A stretch of DNA of 32,000 nt from Mycolicibacterium smegmatis (GTDB lineage Bacteria; Actinomycetota; Actinomycetes; Mycobacteriales; Mycobacteriaceae), in NCBI RefSeq assembly GCF_001457595.1, contig NZ_LN831039.1, positions 2,310,001-2,342,000 of the forward strand, in the 5' to 3' direction. Below, one piece after another: positions 4,447 through 15,091 of the stretch (position 1 is its first letter; each line of letters begins with the position of its first letter). The position numbers and the translations under genes are program-made. The notes under the pieces are model-generated. The model was not told where the DNA came from and did no database searches. It worked only from the letters and a program-made list of their open reading frames with translations.

Positions 4447-5235
4447 ATGACGCGTGGCGGGCCATCGAGGTCGGAGAGCAATGCGGCTGCTCGCCGGGCA
4501 ATGGACGAGCAGTACCGCCAGAGCTTTCAGCTCGAGCCCGTCACGCGCATCGCCGATCGGGTCGCCGACCAGGTCCGCGATTACATCGTGGCCAACGACC
4601 TGGAGCCTGGTGCCCGGCTGCCGTCCGAGCGGCGTCTCGCCGAGCTCGTGGGCAGTTCGCGCCCCACGGTCAGCCAGGCGCTGCGAAGCCTCGCTGTGAC
4701 CGGGCTGATCGAGATACGGCCGGGTGCAGGGGCTTTCGTCCTGCGCAAACCCACCACCGCGGTGGGCACAGGTCTGCAGATGATGATCGAGCTGGAGCCG
4801 GACAGCATCGGCGAGGCCGTGGACATGCGCCATCTGCTGGAGATGGCCGCCATGGAACGCATCACGACAAGGCCCACGCTTGACCTCGGCAGCATCGACG
4901 AGGCGCTGGAGCGCCTGCGGGCGGCCAAAGGGAGTGCGGCGGAATGGATCGCGGCCGATACCAACTTCCACGTCGCGTTCATCCGTCTCGCGGAGAACCG
5001 CTTCTTGACCAGCGTGTTCGAGAGCGTCCACGATGCGGTTGTCGCGAGGGCCTATCAGAGCTGGATCGTCGCGAACGAGCCGCCGCCCTGGCTGGCAGGT
5101 AAAGAGTTCGCGGCGCAGATCGCCCTGCATGAGCCGATCGTCGCTGCGCTGCGGGCAAGTGACCGTGCGCAATTGGCCACGGCGCTGACGCGCCACCAGG
5201 AGGCTCTCGAAGCGCACATGCGTCTTCACGGCTGA
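4447..5235 (+). CDS. GntR-family transcriptional regulator, FadR subfamily (N-terminal wHTH plus FCD-type C-terminal domain)
   Basis: wHTH signature LPSERRLAELVGSSRPTVSQALRSLAVTGLIEIRPGAGAFV. ATG 4447 sits 5 nt after GAGGAG (4436-4441). The track ORF begins at GTG 4441 in the same frame. Confidence 0.9.
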   Translation: MTRGGPSRSESNAAARRAMDEQYRQSFQLEPVTRIADRVADQVRDYIVANDLEPGARLPSERRLAELVGSSRPTVSQALRSLAVTGLIEIRPGAGAFVLRKPTTAVGTGLQMMIELEPDSIGEAVDMRHLLEMAAMERITTRPTLDLGSIDEALERLRAAKGSAAEWIAADTNFHVAFIRLAENRFLTSVFESVHDAVVARAYQSWIVANEPPPWLAGKEFAAQIALHEPIVAALRASDRAQLATALTRHQEALEAHMRLHG

Positions 5236-5401: not shown

Positions 5402-5427
5402 GGCTAAGCGGCTAGGTGGCTTAGCCA
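5402..5427. promoter_or_regulatory. Candidate GntR operator: GGCTAAGC-N9-GCTTAGCC, containing the perfect 11-bp dyad TGGCTTAGCCA (5417-5427)
   Basis: The inverted repeat was read directly. It lies between the putative -10 element and the RBS GGAGGA (5432-5437) of the transketolase N-subunit gene. Confidence 0.5.
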
Positions 5428-7413: not shown

Positions 7414-8805
7414 GTGAGTGCAACCGATACCAGCCTGCCCACGGGCTGGCGGCCGAGCGAACTGGGGGCCCACGCCGTGCCGGTGGGCTCGCCGGGGACC
7501 ACCATGGCGGTCGACTGGGAGCGCCGGATCGACTTCGATCGCCTTCGCACCCAGCGGCTCACCCGAGCCCTCGACGCCCTCGAGCGCAGTGAACTCGGGG
7601 CGCTGCTGCTCTTCGACATGAACAACATCCGCTACACGACGGCCACCCACATCGGAAACTGGGCCAGGGACAAGCTGTTCCGGATGGCCCTTCTGATCCG
7701 CGGTCAGGCGCCGATCCTGTGGGACATCGGTTCGGCCGCCCGGCTGCACCAGATGCAGGCTCCGTGGCTGCCTCAGGACAGCTGGCGGGCCGGACTCTCG
7801 ACATGGCGCGGCGCGATCGACGACGAGGTCGGCGTGCAGACCGGCAACGCGAAGAAGGTCGCCGACCTCCTGCGCGAGCACGGACTCGCCAACGATCCCG
7901 TCGGCGTCGACGTGGTCGAACTTCCCATGCTCAAAGCCCTTGAGGCCGAGGGCCTCACCATCGTCGACGGTCAGGGCCTCATGCTCGATGTCCGATCGAT
8001 CAAGACCGTCGACGAGATCGCCCTGCTGGACCACGCCGCTGCGTGCGTCGACGCGGCCTACGAGGAGCTCTACAAGTTTCTCCGCGTGGGCGTCAAAGAG
8101 AACGAGACCGTCGCACTGGTCAACAAGGTCCTCTACGAACTGGGCAGCGAAGAGGTCGAGGCCGTCAACGCCATCAGCGGCGAGCGTTGCAGCCCGCACC
8201 CACATGTGTTCAGCGACCGCATGATCCGGCCGATGGACACCGCGTACTTCGACATCGTCCACTCGTACATGGGTTACCGGACGTGCTACTACCGCACGCT
8301 GAACGTCGCAGGCGCGACACGTGCCCAGCGTGACGCGTACAAGCGGGCGCGCGAATACATCGACCTGGCCATCAGCGAGGTGAAACCGGGTGTGCTGACC
8401 TCCGACATCGTCAAGCACTTCCCGGCCGCACAGGAATTCGGCTTCGCCAGCGAGGAGGAAGCGTTCGGGCTGCAGTACTGCCACGGTGTCGGCCTCTCGG
8501 TCTGGGAGAAGCCGCTGATGAGCCGCTACCACTCCTTCGACCATCCGGTCGAGATCAAGGAGGGGATGGTGTTCGCGCTCGAAACCTACTGGCCGACTGC
8601 CGACGGATCTTCGGCGGCGCGCATCGAGGAGGAGGTCGAGGTGACCGCGACCGGAGCCAGGGTGATCACCCGTTTCCCGGCCGATGAGCTTCTCGTGGCA
8701 GGCACCAGGTACTGGAACGGCTTCGATTTCCCCGAGATCAAGGCGCCGATCGGGCGGGGTGTCGCCTCCGGGGTGGCGGCGACCAACGGGGCCGGCGCGA
8801 GCTGA
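7414..8805 (+). CDS. M24-family (creatinase/prolidase fold) hydrolase, DddP/creatinase-like branch
   Basis: 463 aa. The creatinase-type N-domain reads LGALLLFDMNNIRYTTATH. The pita-bread C-domain carries YFDIVHSYMGYRTCYYRT, YCHGVGLSVWEKP, GMVFALETYW and ARIEEEVEVT. GTG start follows AGGAGAAG (7403-7410). Confidence 0.85.
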   Translation: MSATDTSLPTGWRPSELGAHAVPVGSPGTTMAVDWERRIDFDRLRTQRLTRALDALERSELGALLLFDMNNIRYTTATHIGNWARDKLFRMALLIRGQAPILWDIGSAARLHQMQAPWLPQDSWRAGLSTWRGAIDDEVGVQTGNAKKVADLLREHGLANDPVGVDVVELPMLKALEAEGLTIVDGQGLMLDVRSIKTVDEIALLDHAAACVDAAYEELYKFLRVGVKENETVALVNKVLYELGSEEVEAVNAISGERCSPHPHVFSDRMIRPMDTAYFDIVHSYMGYRTCYYRTLNVAGATRAQRDAYKRAREYIDLAISEVKPGVLTSDIVKHFPAAQEFGFASEEEAFGLQYCHGVGLSVWEKPLMSRYHSFDHPVEIKEGMVFALETYWPTADGSSAARIEEEVEVTATGARVITRFPADELLVAGTRYWNGFDFPEIKAPIGRGVASGVAATNGAGAS

Positions 8806-9032: not shown

Positions 9033-10000
9033 CACGGGACGCCGTCACGCGCCGGGTCGGGTTCCTGGGTCTCGGGAACATGGGTCGTCCGATGGCGAGA
9101 CGGCTGGCCGCGTCGGCAACCCCGCTCACGGTCTACAACCGGACGACGGCCAAGTGCGCGGAATTCGCCGATCTAGGTTGCGAAGTCGCCGAGTCAGTGG
9201 CCCGGATGGGCCACTGCTCGGTGCTTCTCACCATGCTCGGAACCGACGATGACGTGGCGCAGGTGTACCTCGGCGATGACGGGCTCGTGGCCAACGCCCG
9301 TGCGGGTGCGGTGCTCGTCGACTGCTCGACCATCTCGCCCGACATGTCGGCGCGCGTGCGGGCGCGGTGTGACCGAGCGGGCGTGCACTTCTTGGCGGCG
9401 CCCGTCGCGGGAGGCCCGCCGGTCATCGAAAGTGGTGGCCTCGCAATGGCAGTCAGCGGTGACCGACAGGCCTTCGAACATGCCGCAGACGTTCTTCGCG
9501 TCGTCGCGCCCAATCTCATCTACGTGGGCCCGGGCGATACCAGTCGCCTGGTGAAGATCTGCCACAACCTCCTGGTCGCCGCGACTTTGGAAGTGCTGGG
9601 GGAGTTGTGTGTCCTCGCTGAATCCCATGGGGCGAGTCGTCAGGCTCTGCTGTCCTTCCTGCGCAGCACGGCGATCAGCAGCCGCTTCATCGAGTACAAG
9701 GCGCCACTGCTGGAATCCCTCGATTTCACACCGGCATTCACCAGCAGCCTCATGCAGAAGGATCTCGAGTTGGGCCTCGGGTTGGCGGGTCAGGCCGACG
9801 TGACGATGCCGGTGACCGCCCAGGTGCACGCGACGTACCGGGCCGCCAACGAGTCCGGGCTCGCCGAACTGGACGCCGCGGCGGTCTACCTGTACCTCGC
9901 CGGTTCTAACCCGCCTGAGCGAGCAGGTGGTGGCGACGACCGATCCGGTCGAAACGGCGGGCCCGCTCGGCCAGACGGCGCGCCGGATCCTCACCGGTGA
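9020..10000 (+). CDS. NAD(P)-dependent beta-hydroxyacid dehydrogenase (3-hydroxyisobutyrate / 6-phosphogluconate dehydrogenase-like family)
   Basis: Rossmann start VGFLGLGNMGRPMARRL, then the family core. ATG 9020 is the first plausible start in the long track ORF 8684-10000. The last 35 or so codons are low complexity and overlap the convergent gene. Confidence 0.85.
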   Translation: MAPVARDAVTRRVGFLGLGNMGRPMARRLAASATPLTVYNRTTAKCAEFADLGCEVAESVARMGHCSVLLTMLGTDDDVAQVYLGDDGLVANARAGAVLVDCSTISPDMSARVRARCDRAGVHFLAAPVAGGPPVIESGGLAMAVSGDRQAFEHAADVLRVVAPNLIYVGPGDTSRLVKICHNLLVAATLEVLGELCVLAESHGASRQALLSFLRSTAISSRFIEYKAPLLESLDFTPAFTSSLMQKDLELGLGLAGQADVTMPVTAQVHATYRAANESGLAELDAAAVYLYLAGSNPPERAGGGDDRSGRNGGPARPDGAPDPHR

Positions 10001-11414
10001 GCGCCCACAACTCCGCCTGTATGGCCGCACCCGTCCGGCGGCTGAACATCTCGGGTTCGCTTGCGGCGTCGGGATGCTCGGCGATGATGCGGTCGACGAG
10101 GCCGTGCTCGAACAGGTCTGTCGAGCGCACGCCTTGTTGTTCGGCCATCTCGGCGGCATGAGCGGTGTCGCGGTGCAGGATGGCGCTGGCACCCTCGGGC
10201 GGAAGAGGGGACAGCCAACCGTGCTGCGCGGCCAGGACACGATCGGCCGGCACCAGGGCCAGCGCGCCGCCGCCGGTGCCCTGACCGAGCAGCACCGACA
10301 CCGTCGGCACGGGAAGACTGACCATCTCGGCGATACACCGGGCGATCTCCCCGGCCAGGCCGCCCTCCTCGGCCTCCTTCGACAGTGCCGCCCCGGCGGT
10401 GTCGATGACGGTCACCAGGGGCAGGTCGAGGTCGGCGGCCAGGCGCATGCCGCGGCGCGCCTGTCGTAGCGCGCCGGGTCCGAGCGGTGTCTGCGGGGTC
10501 TGCCCGCGACGGTCCTGACCGAGCACCACACACGGCAGATGCCCGAACCGGGCCAGCGCGAGGAGCAGGCCGGGATCGGTTTCACCCTGCCCGGTTCCGC
10601 TGAGCGCGAGGACGTCACCGGCCGCGTGGTGCAGGAGTTCGCGCACACCGGGTCGGTCCTCGCGACGCGACGCGCACACCGACTGCCACGCGGGGACGTC
10701 GACGCCCACCGACACTTTCGCGGTGGCGGGTGCCTGCGTGGTCCGTCGCGCACGCATCATGACGCTCAGGGCCCGGTCGACCACCTCGGGCAACCGGTCG
10801 AGCGGCAGCACCCCGTCGATCAGCCCGCACGCCTCGAGGTTCTCGGCGGTCTGGACGCCTTCGGGGAACGGCGCGTCGTAGAGCGCCTGGTACACGCGCG
10901 GGCCGAGGAAGCCGATCATCGCGCCCGGTTCGGCAAAAGTGATGTGTCCCAACGATCCCCACGAGGCGAACACGCCACCTGTGGTGGGATGGCGCAGGTA
11001 CACCAGATAGGGCAGGTGCGCGGCCTTGTGGTCGACCACGGCCGCGGTGATCTTGACCATCTGCAGGAAGGCGGCCGCGCCCTCCTGCATGCGGGTGCCA
11101 CCCGAGGTGGGCAGCGCGAGCAGCGGCAGTTTCTCCGCGGTCGCGCGGCGGATCGCGGCGGTGAGCCGCTCGCCCGCGGCGATGCCGATCGATCCGCCGA
11201 GGAAGCGGAAGTCGCACGCAAGCAGGGCAATCCGGTGACCTTGTACGTAGGCTGCTCCGGTGATCACGGCCTCGTCGAGACCGGTGACAGCGCGTGCGTG
11301 CGCGAGGTCCCGCGCATAGACGGGATCGAGATCCTCATCGGTGACGGGGGAGTCCCATGAGGTCCACGAGCCGTGGTCGACCACCGTGGTGATCACCTCG
11401 TGCGCGGCGGTCAT
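9906..11414 (-). CDS. Fused carboxyltransferase: AccD-like beta half plus AccA-like alpha half, with no zinc-finger N-terminus
   Basis: Start MTAAHEVITTV at 11414, in a 4-nt ATGA overlap with the upstream CoA-transferase stop. The beta-type motif is DFRFLGGSIGIAAGERL...SGGTRMQEG. The alpha-type motif is PLVTVIDTAGAALSKEAEEGGLAGEIA...LLGQGTGGGALA. The track ORF extension 11415-11606 was rejected. Confidence 0.85.
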   Translation of the reverse strand: MTAAHEVITTVVDHGSWTSWDSPVTDEDLDPVYARDLAHARAVTGLDEAVITGAAYVQGHRIALLACDFRFLGGSIGIAAGERLTAAIRRATAEKLPLLALPTSGGTRMQEGAAAFLQMVKITAAVVDHKAAHLPYLVYLRHPTTGGVFASWGSLGHITFAEPGAMIGFLGPRVYQALYDAPFPEGVQTAENLEACGLIDGVLPLDRLPEVVDRALSVMMRARRTTQAPATAKVSVGVDVPAWQSVCASRREDRPGVRELLHHAAGDVLALSGTGQGETDPGLLLALARFGHLPCVVLGQDRRGQTPQTPLGPGALRQARRGMRLAADLDLPLVTVIDTAGAALSKEAEEGGLAGEIARCIAEMVSLPVPTVSVLLGQGTGGGALALVPADRVLAAQHGWLSPLPPEGASAILHRDTAHAAEMAEQQGVRSTDLFEHGLVDRIIAEHPDAASEPEMFSRRTGAAIQAELWALTGEDPARRLAERARRFDRIGRRHHLLAQAG

Positions 11415-12631
11415 CGCCGTCCTGCCGTGAGCTCGTCGATCAGGTGGTTGTCGGCGCCCAGCACGGGCGGGGCACTGTGGTCCCGTCGCGTGCGCTCGGG
11501 ACCCGCGACATCGAAGAAGCGCAGCGGCGGCCCGGGCAGGGTGATCTTGCCCAGGGTTGCGTGGTCGACGTCGATGAGCAGTCCCTGTGACCGGGTCTGC
11601 TCCCATTCGTAGACCTCCCGCAGATTCCGGATCCGCCCGGCGGGTACCCCGATCTGGTCGAGGATGCCGAGCAGTTCGTCGGTGGAGTACAGCGAGAACA
11701 CGTTCTGGACAAGGTCGTTGACGCGTTTCTGGTTGGCGACGCGCTCGGGGTTGGTCGCCATGCCGGGCGCGTGGGCGTCGAGGTGGAAGCCGTCACAGAA
11801 GCGTTTCCACAGGCCTTCGCTGCCGACGGCGATCTGTACGGCACCGTCGGCGGTGTCGAACAAGCCGTACGGGCAGATCGACGGATGATGGTTGCCGGTC
11901 GCCTCGCCGATCTGACCGGCGACGGTCCACTTGGTGCCCTGGAAGGCGTGTACGCCCACCACGGCCGCCAGCAGCGACGCGCGGACCACCTGACCCCGTC
12001 CTGTGCGGGCGCGTTCGTTGAGGGCCGCCAGGACACCGAAGGCGCCGTACATGCCCGCCAGCAGGTCGGCGATCGGCACCCCGACGCGTTGCAGGTCATG
12101 GGGATTGGCTCCGGTCAGTGACATCAGGCCCGCCTCGCCCTGGGCGATCTGGTCGTACCCGGCGCGGCCGGCCTCGGGGCCGTCGTGCCCGAATCCGCTG
12201 ATCGACAGGATGATCAGGCGCGGGTTGAGTTCCTGCAGCACTTCTTCGGAGAAGCCGAGCCGGTCGAGCACGCCGGGGCGGAAGTTCTCCATGAGGACGT
12301 CGGCGCGGCGCAGCAGTTCGGTCAGCGCGTCGCGACCCAAGGGGCTCTTCAGGTCGAGCGTGACGGACTTCTTGTTGCGGTTGGCGCTCAGGAAGTAGGT
12401 CGATTCCCGTTCTGCCCCGGTGGGTTCGATGAACGGTGGCCCCCAGCCGCGGGTGTCGTCACCGCCAACGGGACTCTCGACCTTGATGACGTCGGCGCCG
12501 AGATCGCCCAGCATCATCGCGGCGTGCGGGCCTGCGAGTGCGCGGGTCAGATCGACGACCGTGAGGTCGGCCAAGGGGCCGGCCGACAACGCCAACTGTG
12601 GTCCGTCGCTCGGGTGGATGGTGTCCGTCAT
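11411..12631 (-). CDS. Type III (CaiB/BaiF family) acyl-CoA transferase
   Basis: 406 aa. The family hallmarks are LADLTVVDLTRALAGPHAAMMLGDLGADVIKVE and the catalytic-Asp region ISGFGHDGPEAGRAGYDQIAQG. GGGAGG (complement of 12637-12642) lies 5 nt upstream of ATG 12631. Confidence 0.9.
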   Translation of the reverse strand: MTDTIHPSDGPQLALSAGPLADLTVVDLTRALAGPHAAMMLGDLGADVIKVESPVGGDDTRGWGPPFIEPTGAERESTYFLSANRNKKSVTLDLKSPLGRDALTELLRRADVLMENFRPGVLDRLGFSEEVLQELNPRLIILSISGFGHDGPEAGRAGYDQIAQGEAGLMSLTGANPHDLQRVGVPIADLLAGMYGAFGVLAALNERARTGRGQVVRASLLAAVVGVHAFQGTKWTVAGQIGEATGNHHPSICPYGLFDTADGAVQIAVGSEGLWKRFCDGFHLDAHAPGMATNPERVANQKRVNDLVQNVFSLYSTDELLGILDQIGVPAGRIRNLREVYEWEQTRSQGLLIDVDHATLGKITLPGPPLRFFDVAGPERTRRDHSAPPVLGADNHLIDELTAGRR

Positions 12632-12666
12632 GGGGGCCTCCCTGAATCGGTCTGGCTCGGAGATCT

Positions 12667-12689
12667 AGTGGCTGAGTGGACTAGCCACT
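12667..12689. promoter_or_regulatory. Inverted repeat AGTGGCT-N9-AGCCACT in the CoA-transferase operon upstream region; candidate GntR operator
   Basis: Read directly. It lies 36-58 nt upstream of the CoA-transferase start. Its half-sites match the TGGCT/AGCCA arms found at 2041, 5417 and 14284. Confidence 0.4.
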
Positions 12690-12795
12690 TCAGCACAACA
12701 CCGGATGTCACTGAAGTCAACGGGTGGCCCGGAAAAATGAGGTGACTTGAGCCACAAGGAAATTTGGCCTCAACTCGCGCGTGATACGACGAATG

Positions 12796-12819
12796 CCCGA
12801 GGCGGGATTCCGCCTCGGG
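12796..12819 (-). terminator. Perfect 10-bp GC-rich hairpin (CCCGAGGCGG-gatt-CCGCCTCGGG) downstream of the permease gene; terminator without a strong U-tract
   Basis: The perfect stem was read directly. It lies 21 nt beyond the permease stop (12840) on the minus strand. The tail is only weakly U-rich, which is common in mycobacteria. Confidence 0.6.
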
Positions 12820-12839
12820 TCGATTCGCCTATGGGGTGG

Positions 12840-14240
12840 TTACAGCCAGCCGGGCAGGACCAGCGCCGCCCAGGCCACGAGCGGTCCGATCGCGATCACC
12901 AGGCCGCTGTATTTGAGGATCTGCCGGTAGAACACGTCGCGGTCGACCCCCTGGGCGTTCGCGAGCACCAGCGCGCCGTTGGTCGAGAACGGGCTGACGT
13001 CGACGATGGTCGAGGCGATCGCGAGTGCGACGACCACCCCGATCGGTCCGATGTCACCGGCCAGCAGCAGCGGAACCGCAAGGGGGATGGTGGCTCCCAG
13101 GATCGCGGTCGAGGATGCGAACGCCGAGACGATCCCGCCGAGGTAGCACAGCAGCAGCGCCACCAGAAGCGGCATGCCGAGCTTCGCAACGCCGTTGCCG
13201 ACCCATTCGACCGTGCCGGCCTCCTGCAGGACGCCCACGAAGGTGAGCACGCCGCCGATCAGCAGCACCGTGGACCAGCTGATCTGCGACACCGCGCCCT
13301 TTTGGGCCTTGGGCGAGGCGAGGGCCAGCACCGCGGCCACGGTCATCGCGACGAAGCCGACGTCGAGGTCGAGGATCAGCGAGAACAGCCCGAGCGCGCC
13401 GAGGCCGATGAGCGTGAGGATCTGGTCGAAGGATGCCGCGCGTCGGGGCAGGGGGCTGGTTGGCGTGTTCGGCGGTGCGGTCAGCGTGGCCGCCGAGGCC
13501 TGCGTGCCGTGGCCGGAGAAAACCGGGCTGCCCCCGCCCGACGGTGCGGAGCCACCACCGCCCGTGGAGCCTCCCGGGCCTCCGGTGCCGTCGGCCTCGA
13601 TCGCGCCGTCACCTTCGAAGCTCGCGGTGGTCTGCCCGAGCAGTTTGCGGCCGCCCAGGAAGATGAACAGCAGAACGCCGATGGCGGCGTTGAAGAAGAA
13701 GCTGCCGAGGAACAGCGCCAGCGGGCTGTTGAGTAGGCCGGCCTTGGCGACGATGTTGTTGACGGTGACGCCGTAGATGCTGATGGGGGAGAACCCGCCG
13801 GCCTGGGCGCCGTGGATGACCATCATGCCCATCAGCAGGGCGTTGATGCGGTATTTGCGGGCGAAGGTCAGCGCGATCGGCGCGATGATGGCGACCGCGG
13901 CGGGTCCGAGGGCGCCCAGTGCGGTCAGCACCGCGGTGATGCCGAACATCACCCACGGTATGAAGGCCACACGGCCTCTGACCAGGCGTAACGCGCCGCG
14001 GACCATGAGGTCCACGGTGCCGTTGTTCTGCGCTATGGCAAACAGATAGGTGACGCCGACCAGCGTCAGGAACAAATCGCTGGGAAACCCGGCGATGATG
14101 TCGTCGGTATCCATACCGACGGCGATCGTGCCGACGAGGAAGGCGGCGACGAAGCCCAGCGTGCCCATGTTGATGGGGAGCAGCGTCGCCGCTGCGAACA
14201 TCGCGATGAGGGCAAGAATCGGGATCAGTTCGAGCGGCAT
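12840..14240 (-). CDS. Ion-transporter-superfamily permease (SLC13/DASS, CitMHS or ArsB-NhaD-like anion/carboxylate permease) with a central Gly/Ser/Pro-rich linker
   Basis: Start MPLELIPILALIAMF at 14240, preceded by a GGAG-type RBS. Two multi-helix hydrophobic halves are separated by a low-complexity loop (about nt 13431-13628). The track ORF extension to 14300 was rejected. Confidence 0.8.
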   Translation of the reverse strand: MPLELIPILALIAMFAAATLLPINMGTLGFVAAFLVGTIAVGMDTDDIIAGFPSDLFLTLVGVTYLFAIAQNNGTVDLMVRGALRLVRGRVAFIPWVMFGITAVLTALGALGPAAVAIIAPIALTFARKYRINALLMGMMVIHGAQAGGFSPISIYGVTVNNIVAKAGLLNSPLALFLGSFFFNAAIGVLLFIFLGGRKLLGQTTASFEGDGAIEADGTGGPGGSTGGGGSAPSGGGSPVFSGHGTQASAATLTAPPNTPTSPLPRRAASFDQILTLIGLGALGLFSLILDLDVGFVAMTVAAVLALASPKAQKGAVSQISWSTVLLIGGVLTFVGVLQEAGTVEWVGNGVAKLGMPLLVALLLCYLGGIVSAFASSTAILGATIPLAVPLLLAGDIGPIGVVVALAIASTIVDVSPFSTNGALVLANAQGVDRDVFYRQILKYSGLVIAIGPLVAWAALVLPGWL

Positions 14241-14271
14241 CGGGAACTCCGAACGTCGTGCGAGCGGTGAA

Positions 14272-14305
14272 CCAGTGGAGCACTGGCCTAGCCAGTACAC
14301 CAGTG
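14272..14305. promoter_or_regulatory. Cluster of CCAGTG/CACTGG half-sites, including the dyads CCAGTG-gag-CACTGG and ACTGGC-cta-GCCAGT (contains TGGCCTAGCCA 14284-14294), in the divergent permease/GntR intergenic region
   Basis: Hexamers occur at 14272, 14281, 14292 (5 of 6) and 14300. Further copies lie at 14314 (5 of 6) and 14355. All were read directly. Confidence 0.45.
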
Positions 14306-14374
14306 GGACGAATCACTGTCAATAGGCGGGTGTGAGCCGTCCTACTCATCCTGTCACTGGTCGGCGGGTATTGT

Positions 14375-15091
14375 TTGGTTCAGAGAGTGGGTGAGCTAGT
14401 GGCTGAGCAACTGAGACCAGTAACGCGTCCGCGGCTCTACGAGGTCATCGTCGAGCAGTTGTGCGCATACATCTACAGCAATGAGATGGAGCCGGGGGAT
14501 CGGCTGCCCGCCGAGCGTGACCTGGCGGCCAAGCTGGGGGTGAGCCGTGCGTCGCTCAGCCAGGCGCTCGTGGCCCTCGAGGTGCAGGGCGTGCTGTCGG
14601 TACGGCACGGCGACGGCGCGATCCTCATCCGCAGGCCCACCGAGGAGGGCTCCATCCGGGCCCTGCGTGAGCACGCCGACCGTATCCCCGACATCATCGA
14701 GGCCCGCGAGGCACTCGAGGTCAAGCTCGCCGAACTCGCGGCGGCGCGGCGCACCGACGCCGAGATGGCGGCGATCGACGCGGCCATCGCGACGATGGAA
14801 AAGGAAGTCGAAGCCGGCGAACGCGGCGTCATGGGCGACGAAATGTTCCACGAGGCAATCACATCCGCGGCGCATTCGTCGTTGCTGGCCAAGCTCATGC
14901 ACGAGATCGCGGGGTTGATCCGGGAAACGCGGATCGAGTCGCTGTCGCAGGAGAACCGGCCGCGCGCGTCGCTGGAAGGCCATCGGCGTATCGCCGACGC
15001 GATCCGCAAGCAGGATTCGCAGGCCGCGGCACAGGCCATGGCCGAGCACATCCGCATGGTGTCCGACGTGGCGCTGCTGCGCGAGGGCTGA
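14375..15091 (+). CDS. GntR-family transcriptional regulator, FadR subfamily (LldR/PdhR-like architecture)
   Basis: wHTH signature LPAERDLAAKLGVSRASLSQALVALEVQGVLSVRHGDGAIL plus an FCD-type helical C-terminal domain. The start is uncertain: TTG 14375, GTG 14387 or GTG 14399, all in frame. Confidence 0.88.
   Translation: MVQRVGELVAEQLRPVTRPRLYEVIVEQLCAYIYSNEMEPGDRLPAERDLAAKLGVSRASLSQALVALEVQGVLSVRHGDGAILIRRPTEEGSIRALREHADRIPDIIEAREALEVKLAELAAARRTDAEMAAIDAAIATMEKEVEAGERGVMGDEMFHEAITSAAHSSLLAKLMHEIAGLIRETRIESLSQENRPRASLEGHRRIADAIRKQDSQAAAQAMAEHIRMVSDVALLREG

Follow-up and report, generated by a model that had tools for sequence, protein, structure and literature searches.

What is the likely function of a carboxyltransferase of the acetyl-coenzyme A (CoA) carboxylase (ACC) type whose gene is translationally coupled to that of a CoA-transferase and lies beside the genes for a carboxylate carrier and a regulator? 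This question is raised by the 32,000-nucleotide (nt) stretch of DNA analysed here (positions 2,310,001 to 2,342,000 of contig NZ_LN831039.1, hereafter the window), which belongs to a Mycolicibacterium genome of 6.98 Mb in a single contig. The original prediction, made from the letters of this stretch, had proposed that a CoA-transferase, a fused AccD/AccA-type carboxyltransferase (CT), a permease and a FadR-like regulator form a module for the activation and decarboxylation of a malonate-like dicarboxylate. Our analysis suggests that this is probably a repressor-controlled module that uses malonate, or otherwise an acid very similar to it (for example, methylmalonate), by uptake, CoA transfer and decarboxylation of malonyl-CoA to acetyl-CoA. 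In the proposed sequence of events, the MatC-type carrier would import the dicarboxylate; the family III CoA-transferase would form malonyl-CoA, with acetyl-CoA or succinyl-CoA as the acyl-CoA donor; the coupled fused CT would remove the free carboxyl group in a crotonase-type active site, giving acetyl-CoA; and the GntR/FCD protein would repress both promoters of the module via the sequence TGGCTAGKCCA until the substrate is present. Every catalytic step in this scheme, the CoA donor and the fate of the CO2 are what we infer from sequence.

The coupled gene pair and its conservation

Based on a gene call by log-odds of the GC content at third codon positions (GC3), all four genes were found where they had been predicted, with three start codons amended. 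The fused CT gene (9906–11414, minus strand) encodes 502 amino acids, with the AccD-like half first and the AccA-like half second, and the family III CoA-transferase gene (11411–12631, minus strand) encodes 406 amino acids, with the catalytic Asp assigned to residue 189. The proposed coupling of the two genes was read directly in the sequence as an ATGA stop/start overlap at 11411–11414 (minus strand), over which the RNA depth was unbroken. A CT start at ATG 11606, as given by a plain list of open reading frames, was rejected, since the segment 11415–11606 has a GC3 of 0.50 and non-coding codon statistics. The pair is surrounded by genes for the carrier, the regulator, a helicase and a hydroxyacid dehydrogenase. 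The carrier gene (12840–14240, minus strand, 466 amino acids) and the regulator gene (14399–15091, plus strand, 230 amino acids, GTG start) had been called a carboxylate-type permease and a FadR-like regulator, and Pfam agreed in both cases: the carrier matched MatC_N (PF07158) with an E-value of 4e-60 and 202.6 bits over profile positions 1–149 of 149, as well as CitMHS with 95 bits, and the regulator matched the GntR helix–turn–helix with 59.8 bits and FCD with 92.2 bits. This gene content and the stop/start coupling are direct observations.

To place the pair among its relatives, we used a pattern scan of species-representative genomes, which gave 80 CT loci, or 81 with the window. A CoA-transferase orthologue (59–80% identical) was located directly 5′ of the CT gene on the same strand at 33 of the 81 loci, and many of these orthologous loci showed similar stop/start overlaps of 4 or 8 nt. 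The pair was observed in Mycobacteriaceae, Nocardiaceae, Microbacteriaceae, Brevibacteriaceae, Intrasporangiaceae, Geodermatophilaceae, Streptosporangiaceae and other families, so that the co-occurrence across actinobacteria on which the original prediction was to be judged was indeed found. When the label 'pair' or 'solo' was mapped on the CT tree, four changes were required, compared with approximately 23 for shuffled labels, and the solo clades comprised the mycobacterial/Rhodococcus AccD3 group and a Nocardioides group. Because the backbone of this tree is poorly resolved, we do not claim either state as ancestral. Prediction of a complex from the CoA-transferase and CT alignments gave a score of 0.01, which is no verdict either way.

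The same genome carries a second CT copy, an AccD3 orthologue that is 65% identical to the window CT and has the same fused architecture without a zinc ribbon; no CoA-transferase gene was found in its neighbourhood. AccD3 stands alone, with neither a CoA-transferase nor a carrier gene adjoining it, and 17 of the 19 other Mycobacteriaceae genomes in the sample have it. The window CT is accessory by comparison, and the module is patchy within the genus, with a second CT copy in two of 15 sampled genomes. The window CT is 94% identical to a protein of Mycolicibacterium smegmatis that carries the name 'carboxyl transferase subunits beta/alpha' and is taken to be MSMEG_2169, which is mentioned in the literature only as an extra accD3-like gene of M. 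smegmatis (PMC5311964). MSMEG_2173 has been described as a 230-amino-acid FadR-type regulator (PMC2018728), the same length as the window regulator.

The CoA-transferase, and gene contexts that point to malonate

The CoA-transferase matched PF02515 over its full length (2e-114; 382.8 bits against a cut-off of 23.3; profile positions 1–366 of 366). Its D189 aligned without gaps with Asp169 of Frc, which we take to be the catalytic residue, and was invariant in 25 orthologues. The closest solved relatives were 4ed9 (an uncharacterised CaiB/BaiF protein), SUGCT, formyl-CoA transferase and YfdE, the characterised ones among which all act on short dicarboxylates. The protein scored below every curated equivalog cut-off, with 322 bits against 750 for succinate–glutarate, 238 against 522 for YfdE-type oxalate, 197 against 504 for Frc and 237 against 700 for mesaconate CoA-transferases. 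With acetyl-CoA as the donor, the two enzymes could run a self-priming cycle with the net conversion of malonate to acetate and CO2, while succinyl-CoA as the donor could equally give a net gain of acetyl-CoA. Such a cycle resembles the oxalate systems Frc/Oxc and YfdE, in which a family III CoA-transferase works together with a decarboxylase and the CoA donor is restored from the product of the latter; the oxalate decarboxylase differs in being a thiamine-diphosphate enzyme that acts on oxalyl-CoA.

Three gene contexts were observed that point to malonate. Firstly, an orthologue of the MatC-type carrier adjoins the pair at approximately 12 loci in several families. Secondly, many other families have genes for a carbamate kinase and an AtzD-family protein 3′ of the pair. 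The latter matched PDB 5hwe with 660 bits and approximately 83% identity, compared with approximately 313 bits for cyanuric acid hydrolases, and by this comparison it is a barbiturase; the NCBIfam name 'cyanuric acid amidohydrolase' was rejected on the same grounds. In the oxidative pyrimidine pathway, uracil is converted via barbiturate, which is opened by barbiturase, and ureidomalonate to urea and malonate (PMC3758960). Thirdly, a distant fused CT from a Streptomyces-like genome (locus L154; 34% identical to the window CT) overlaps the stop codon of a gene for a 485-amino-acid AMP ligase, the second-best family of which is malonyl-CoA synthase (MatB-like). This divergent CT is thus likewise coupled translationally to an enzyme of a malonate-activating type, the partner being an AMP ligase in place of a CoA-transferase. 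These contexts strengthened the malonate-like part of the original prediction; the involvement of biotin is considered below.

The link with barbiturase was examined in 401 sampled Actinomycetes genomes, among which barbiturase was detected in 90 and CT in 116. By our reading of the two tables, CT was present in 60 of the 90 genomes with barbiturase, compared with 56 of the 311 without it; one of the 60 (G035) is an unpublished genome, leaving 59 without it. Both genes were located within 20 kb of each other, mostly within 4 kb, in 36 of the 60 genomes, and neither these 36 linked genomes nor the fetched loci include unpublished material. The order CoA-transferase, CT, carbamate kinase, barbiturase was found in 19 of 20 fetched regions, some of which have one or more intervening genes; as exceptions, L125 has no kinase gene, and the contig of L119 ends before the CoA-transferase gene. 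The flanks of these regions consist of unrelated housekeeping genes (infC-rplT-pheS, fmt-rsmB, rbpA), and one region opens with a MatC-type carrier gene.

The loci with the four-gene core (L119–L138, for example L122 and L126, and also L030, L041 and L044) often lie 3′ of hydantoinase A/B-like genes, and five of them carry a 328-amino-acid gene without family assignment between CT and carbamate kinase. At L079 (4970–9980), and likewise at L014 and L039, the region upstream of the pair holds genes for a molybdenum enzyme of the xanthine dehydrogenase family and for an enzyme with an amidase signature, the latter gene overlapping the start of the CoA-transferase gene. These two enzymes are candidates for uracil/thymine dehydrogenase and ureidomalonase, respectively.

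The four-gene core holds a carbamate kinase and no recognisable ureidomalonase, which speaks for an alternative in which the acid is a different one. The substrate would then be methylmalonate, another short dicarboxylate or, in the barbiturase clusters, a ureido acid (ureidomalonate or malonamate, for instance), with a CT chemistry other than malonyl-CoA decarboxylation; for example, the ureido-binding half of CT would act on a ureido group and feed carbamate kinase. The failure of the CoA-transferase to reach any equivalog cut-off, even that of its best match, is compatible with this alternative, as is the expectation that the route, when it starts from thymine, would end in methylmalonate. 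Against it, the pair in the window is accompanied by the MatC-type carrier and by no carbamate kinase gene, in a genome without barbiturase; CTs of the AccD/AccA type act on acetyl-CoA and malonyl-CoA; and the CoA ester of ureidomalonate would have no free carboxyl group to remove. We regard a different acid as improbable. It is likewise improbable that, in barbiturase clusters, urea or another ureido compound takes the place of biotin in the AccA-like half and receives the carboxyl group.

Malonate, the preferred substrate, is a common acid of plants and soil and an inhibitor of succinate dehydrogenase. To our knowledge, the bacterial routes for its use are Mat, Mdc and Mad. The Mat system of Rhizobium is, like the window module, associated with a GntR-type regulator. 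As described in the work of An & Kim (1998) cited in PMC6491548, Rhizobium matABC shares with the module a MatC-type carrier and the conversion, proposed for the module, of malonate via malonyl-CoA to acetyl-CoA and CO2. The two systems would differ in activation, which is by the ATP-dependent ligase MatB in one and by a CoA-transferase in the other, and in the decarboxylase, which is MatA of the malonyl-CoA decarboxylase family (PF05292) in one and the fused AccD/AccA-type CT in the other. A search with PF05292 gave no match in this genome, nor in any of 14 control genomes, and is hence uninformative.

The carboxyltransferase and the involvement of biotin

Both CT domains were recognized by Pfam (PF01039, E-value 1e-52; PF03255, E-value 6e-48), and the closest solved structures were AccD and AccA chains, with MdcD at only 3e-7. 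The protein retains the motifs SGGxRMQEG, PTxGGV, IDTxGA and GxGxxGGALA, with key residues invariant in 25 orthologues; IDTxGA, GxGxGGGALA and PEGxSxI are retained in the AccA-like half. Its scores were nevertheless well below the AccA/AccD equivalog cut-offs (171 against 317.45 for TIGR00515, 125.7 against 319.3 for TIGR00513, 161.3 against 357 for NF004344 and 163.7 against 300 for NF041504), and the N-terminal Cys4 zinc ribbon of AccD is missing, the profile match beginning at position 59. For comparison, a true ACC protein, in which the ribbon was aligned, is encoded at L153 in the Streptomyces-like genome that also carries the ligase-coupled CT. There, a fused CT with zinc ribbon is followed by biotin carboxyl carrier protein (BCCP) and then biotin carboxylase genes, and this CT passes the AccA/AccD cut-offs with 351.8, 340.2 and 368.7. 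Compared with ACC AccD/AccA, including the fused actinobacterial form of L153, the window CT has the same fold, the motifs of both halves and 42–43% identity per half, but lacks the zinc ribbon, scores at about half of the curated cut-offs, is encoded without BCCP or biotin carboxylase genes in the vicinity and occurs in a catabolic context. The complete E. coli-type ACC of L153 (8344–11894) lies beside a gene for an af470-like monooxygenase and is probably part of a polyketide cluster.

These differences bear on the possibility that CT is a plain subunit of an anabolic acyl-CoA carboxylase, that is, an extra AccD3 that makes malonyl-CoA or methylmalonyl-CoA with an AccA3-type biotin carboxylase/BCCP as partner, its adjacency to the CoA-transferase being incidental. 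Database names, which say acetyl-CoA carboxylase carboxyltransferase, and the presence of every CT motif fit such a role. It is difficult to reconcile with the conservation of the CoA-transferase coupling across families, the catabolic contexts with carrier and barbiturase, the operator common to the carrier promoter (described below), the failure to reach cut-offs that the true fused ACC CT with adjoining BCCP and biotin carboxylase passes, and the patchy distribution of the module in the genus. Taken together, we consider an anabolic role very improbable.

The original prediction had also called the CT 'biotin-carrier-less'. This holds for the neighbourhood: in the window, tblastn detected neither a biotin carboxylase nor a BCCP nor a free biotinyl protein, the closest biotin carboxylase gene lies approximately 220 kb away, and in 101 CT loci (1.94 Mb) CT is not accompanied by a gene for a biotin carboxylase, a BCCP domain or a free biotinyl protein. 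The sole biotin-carboxylase-like match in these loci is at the contig edge of L015, approximately 6.5 kb from the pair and on the other strand. As a statement about the enzyme the term goes too far, since the AccA-like half is conserved with its motifs kept and a carrier acting in trans is possible.

The malonate decarboxylase Mdc (MdcA/C/D/E) provides a precedent for decarboxylation without biotin. MdcD–MdcE, an AccD/AccA-fold pair, decarboxylates a malonyl thioester without biotin, accepts malonyl-CoA in vitro, and is served by a transferase that reloads malonate onto the acetyl thioester in a self-priming cycle (PMC5534430). Mdc relies on an acyl carrier protein of its own, which bears a special prosthetic group, and on separate subunits, of which gamma is strongly diverged, whereas the window module would use CoA esters, a single polypeptide with an AccA-like second half and reloading by a family III transferase. 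The analogy with MdcD/MdcE drawn in the original prediction applies to function and fails for membership, as the CT scored 56.4 bits against a cut-off of 278 (TIGR03133) and 25.2 against 237 (TIGR03134). MdcA and MdcC were not among the genes flanking the pair, although no genome-wide search for either was made. The module would resemble both matABC and Mdc in function, and by these sequence comparisons it is a member of neither enzyme family.

AccD3 (Rv0904c and the second CT copy of this genome) resembles the window CT in being fused and ribbon-less, and differs in being stand-alone and conserved, in contrast to the accessory, paired window CT. In Mycobacterium tuberculosis, AccD3 pulled down none of AccA1–3, and its assignment as a carboxylase subunit was called into question by the authors (PMC4347857).

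Several observations weigh against the proposed malonate module with direct decarboxylation. Barbiturase was not found in this genome, where the link to malonate consists of the MatC-type carrier and orthology, so that the module here would serve imported malonate; MatC-type carriers may also transport other dicarboxylates. The RNA runs, for which growth conditions are not stated, showed only low and apparently constitutive depth. E. coli accA and accD are likewise unlinked to accBC, and the missing biotin neighbour is for this reason weak evidence. The AccA-like half, whose counterpart in ACC is where carboxybiotin binds, is not relaxed: its proportion of invariant columns (35%) is the same as that of the AccD-like half, and its identity to the true ACC carboxyltransferase is 43%, compared with 42% for the AccD-like half, which favours biotin or another ureido ligand. 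Finally, MdcE is strongly diverged, and the authors attribute this divergence to the loss of biotin binding (PMC5534430).

The last of these points lead to an alternative in which the pathway is the same and CT is biotin-dependent. The carboxyl group of malonyl-CoA would be transferred to a biotinyl carrier encoded elsewhere, either the BCCP domain of an AccA-type subunit or a free biotinyl protein, and the carboxybiotin would decay or be re-used by other carboxyltransferases, as in a transcarboxylase or a reversed ACC. Canonical CT works in the malonyl-CoA-decarboxylating direction in vitro with biocytin, which counts in favour of this alternative, together with the equal constraint on the AccA-like half and the retention of all AccA signature motifs. 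Possible partners are encoded in the genome: five proteins have a biotin-carboxylase C-terminal domain, and a free 71-amino-acid biotinyl protein with an ESMKME motif, presumably like M. tuberculosis TB7.3, is encoded at 2,064,192–2,064,404 (L147:1474–1686). The TB7.3-like protein was present in 281 of the 401 Actinomycetes genomes irrespective of CT, and could not be found in several complete genomes with CT (G003, G011, G049 and G051 among them); as a CT partner it was rejected for want of a specific co-occurrence link. The absence of a carrier gene near CT in the 101 loci, the AccD3 pull-down (PMC4347857), and scores far under the accA/accD equivalog cut-offs with no zinc ribbon also argue against biotin dependence, and we consider this alternative rather unlikely. 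When only the chemistry is compared, the balance tips weakly, and by little, to direct decarboxylation without biotin over transfer to a biotin carrier encoded elsewhere.

On the assumption of direct decarboxylation, the whole CT clade might, tentatively, consist of carrier-free malonyl-CoA decarboxylases that act on plain CoA esters supplied by the coupled CoA-transferase. The ACC carboxyltransferase fold would then have been recruited independently for decarboxylation a second time, after MdcD/MdcE, and AccD3 would be a housekeeping malonyl-CoA decarboxylase in place of a carboxylase subunit; we hold this extension to be doubtful.

If the malonate module is as proposed, it would constitute a fourth malonate route, composed of a CoA-transferase and a carboxylase-derived enzyme, that is widespread in actinobacteria and fills an annotation gap, as such CTs are now named 'acetyl-CoA carboxylase' subunits and mislead models of lipid metabolism. 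It would also supply the last steps, from malonate to acetyl-CoA, for the oxidative pyrimidine (barbiturate) pathway. The analysis suggests that its chief interest is a testable function for the AccD3 family, the only mycobacterial AccD without known partner or substrate, which is also present in tuberculosis bacteria. Our literature search, which left most subscription journals outside, found no experimental paper on this pair, its M. smegmatis locus tags, a malonate CoA-transferase in mycobacteria or barbiturate gene clusters. The nearest statement in print that we found is a sentence in PMC6491548, in which SACE_3856 is labelled 'MatA' and such CTs are called malonyl-CoA decarboxylases for malonate assimilation; it cites only the unrelated rhizobial MatA and reports no assay.

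Transcripts, operator and neighbouring genes

Four stranded RNA-seq runs were mapped on the region, with usable depth in three. Reads (stranded, antisense-mate) were unbroken over 9885–12705, spanning CT, the overlap and the CoA-transferase gene, and depth fell to approximately zero over 12706–12922, between the enzyme pair and the carrier, in all three runs. The gap of 208 nt between the carrier and CoA-transferase genes holds a GC-rich hairpin 3′ of the carrier stop codon (12796–12819, minus strand), which is probably the end of the carrier transcript, and a promoter-like site, TTGACT-N17-TGTGCT. Based on this gap, its hairpin and the lack of RNA coverage, the carrier, for which RNA depth was low, belongs to a transcript separate from that of the enzyme pair. 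Thus, CoA-transferase and CT are co-transcribed as the operon claim had it, with the carrier outside this transcript. The regulator transcript was strong, and 5′ read ends piled up at 14391 in three runs. It begins 8 nt 5′ of the GTG start and is thus nearly leaderless, and no other RNA of the region comes near it in abundance.

The two promoters of the module had been noted to share a dyad, and we could define it more sharply as the 11-mer TGGCTAGKCCA, of which exactly two copies exist in the 6.98-Mb genome. One copy, TGGCTAGTCCA (12677–12687, minus strand), lies directly 3′ of the promoter-like site and before the CoA-transferase gene, and the other, TGGCTAGGCCA (14284–14294, minus strand), lies in the intergenic region between the divergent carrier and regulator genes. 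A reversed control pattern occurred 55 times in the genome. In four orthologous Rhodococcus/Mycolicibacterium loci, the 11-mer is kept at the same position, just 3′ of a TTGACA-type promoter. From its position and conservation, TGGCTAGKCCA is read as the operator at which the neighbouring GntR protein would bind; with this site at both promoters, carrier and enzyme pair would form one small regulon. A sigma-70 consensus scan of 9700–14500 called no promoter, and the hexamers TTGACT and TGTGCT were read by eye from conserved upstream sequences.

A copy of the operator with one mismatch, TGGCTAAGCCA, is located at 5417–5427, just 5′ of split transketolase genes and adjoining the gene for a second GntR/FCD regulator (4501–5235); it may be the own site of this second regulator or a site of cross-talk. 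On the other side of the enzyme pair, a tartronate-semialdehyde/3-hydroxyisobutyrate-dehydrogenase-like gene (9197–10000, plus strand) converges on the CT gene, the 3′ ends overlapping by 95 nt. The CT transcript continues antisense into this gene, which showed almost no sense reads. Further on, an M24 'creatinase-like' protein is encoded at 7477–8805; its top curated match was the dimethylsulfoniopropionate lyase DddP, with 133 bits against a cut-off of 600, and it forms part of a neighbouring, unexplained catabolic gene set.

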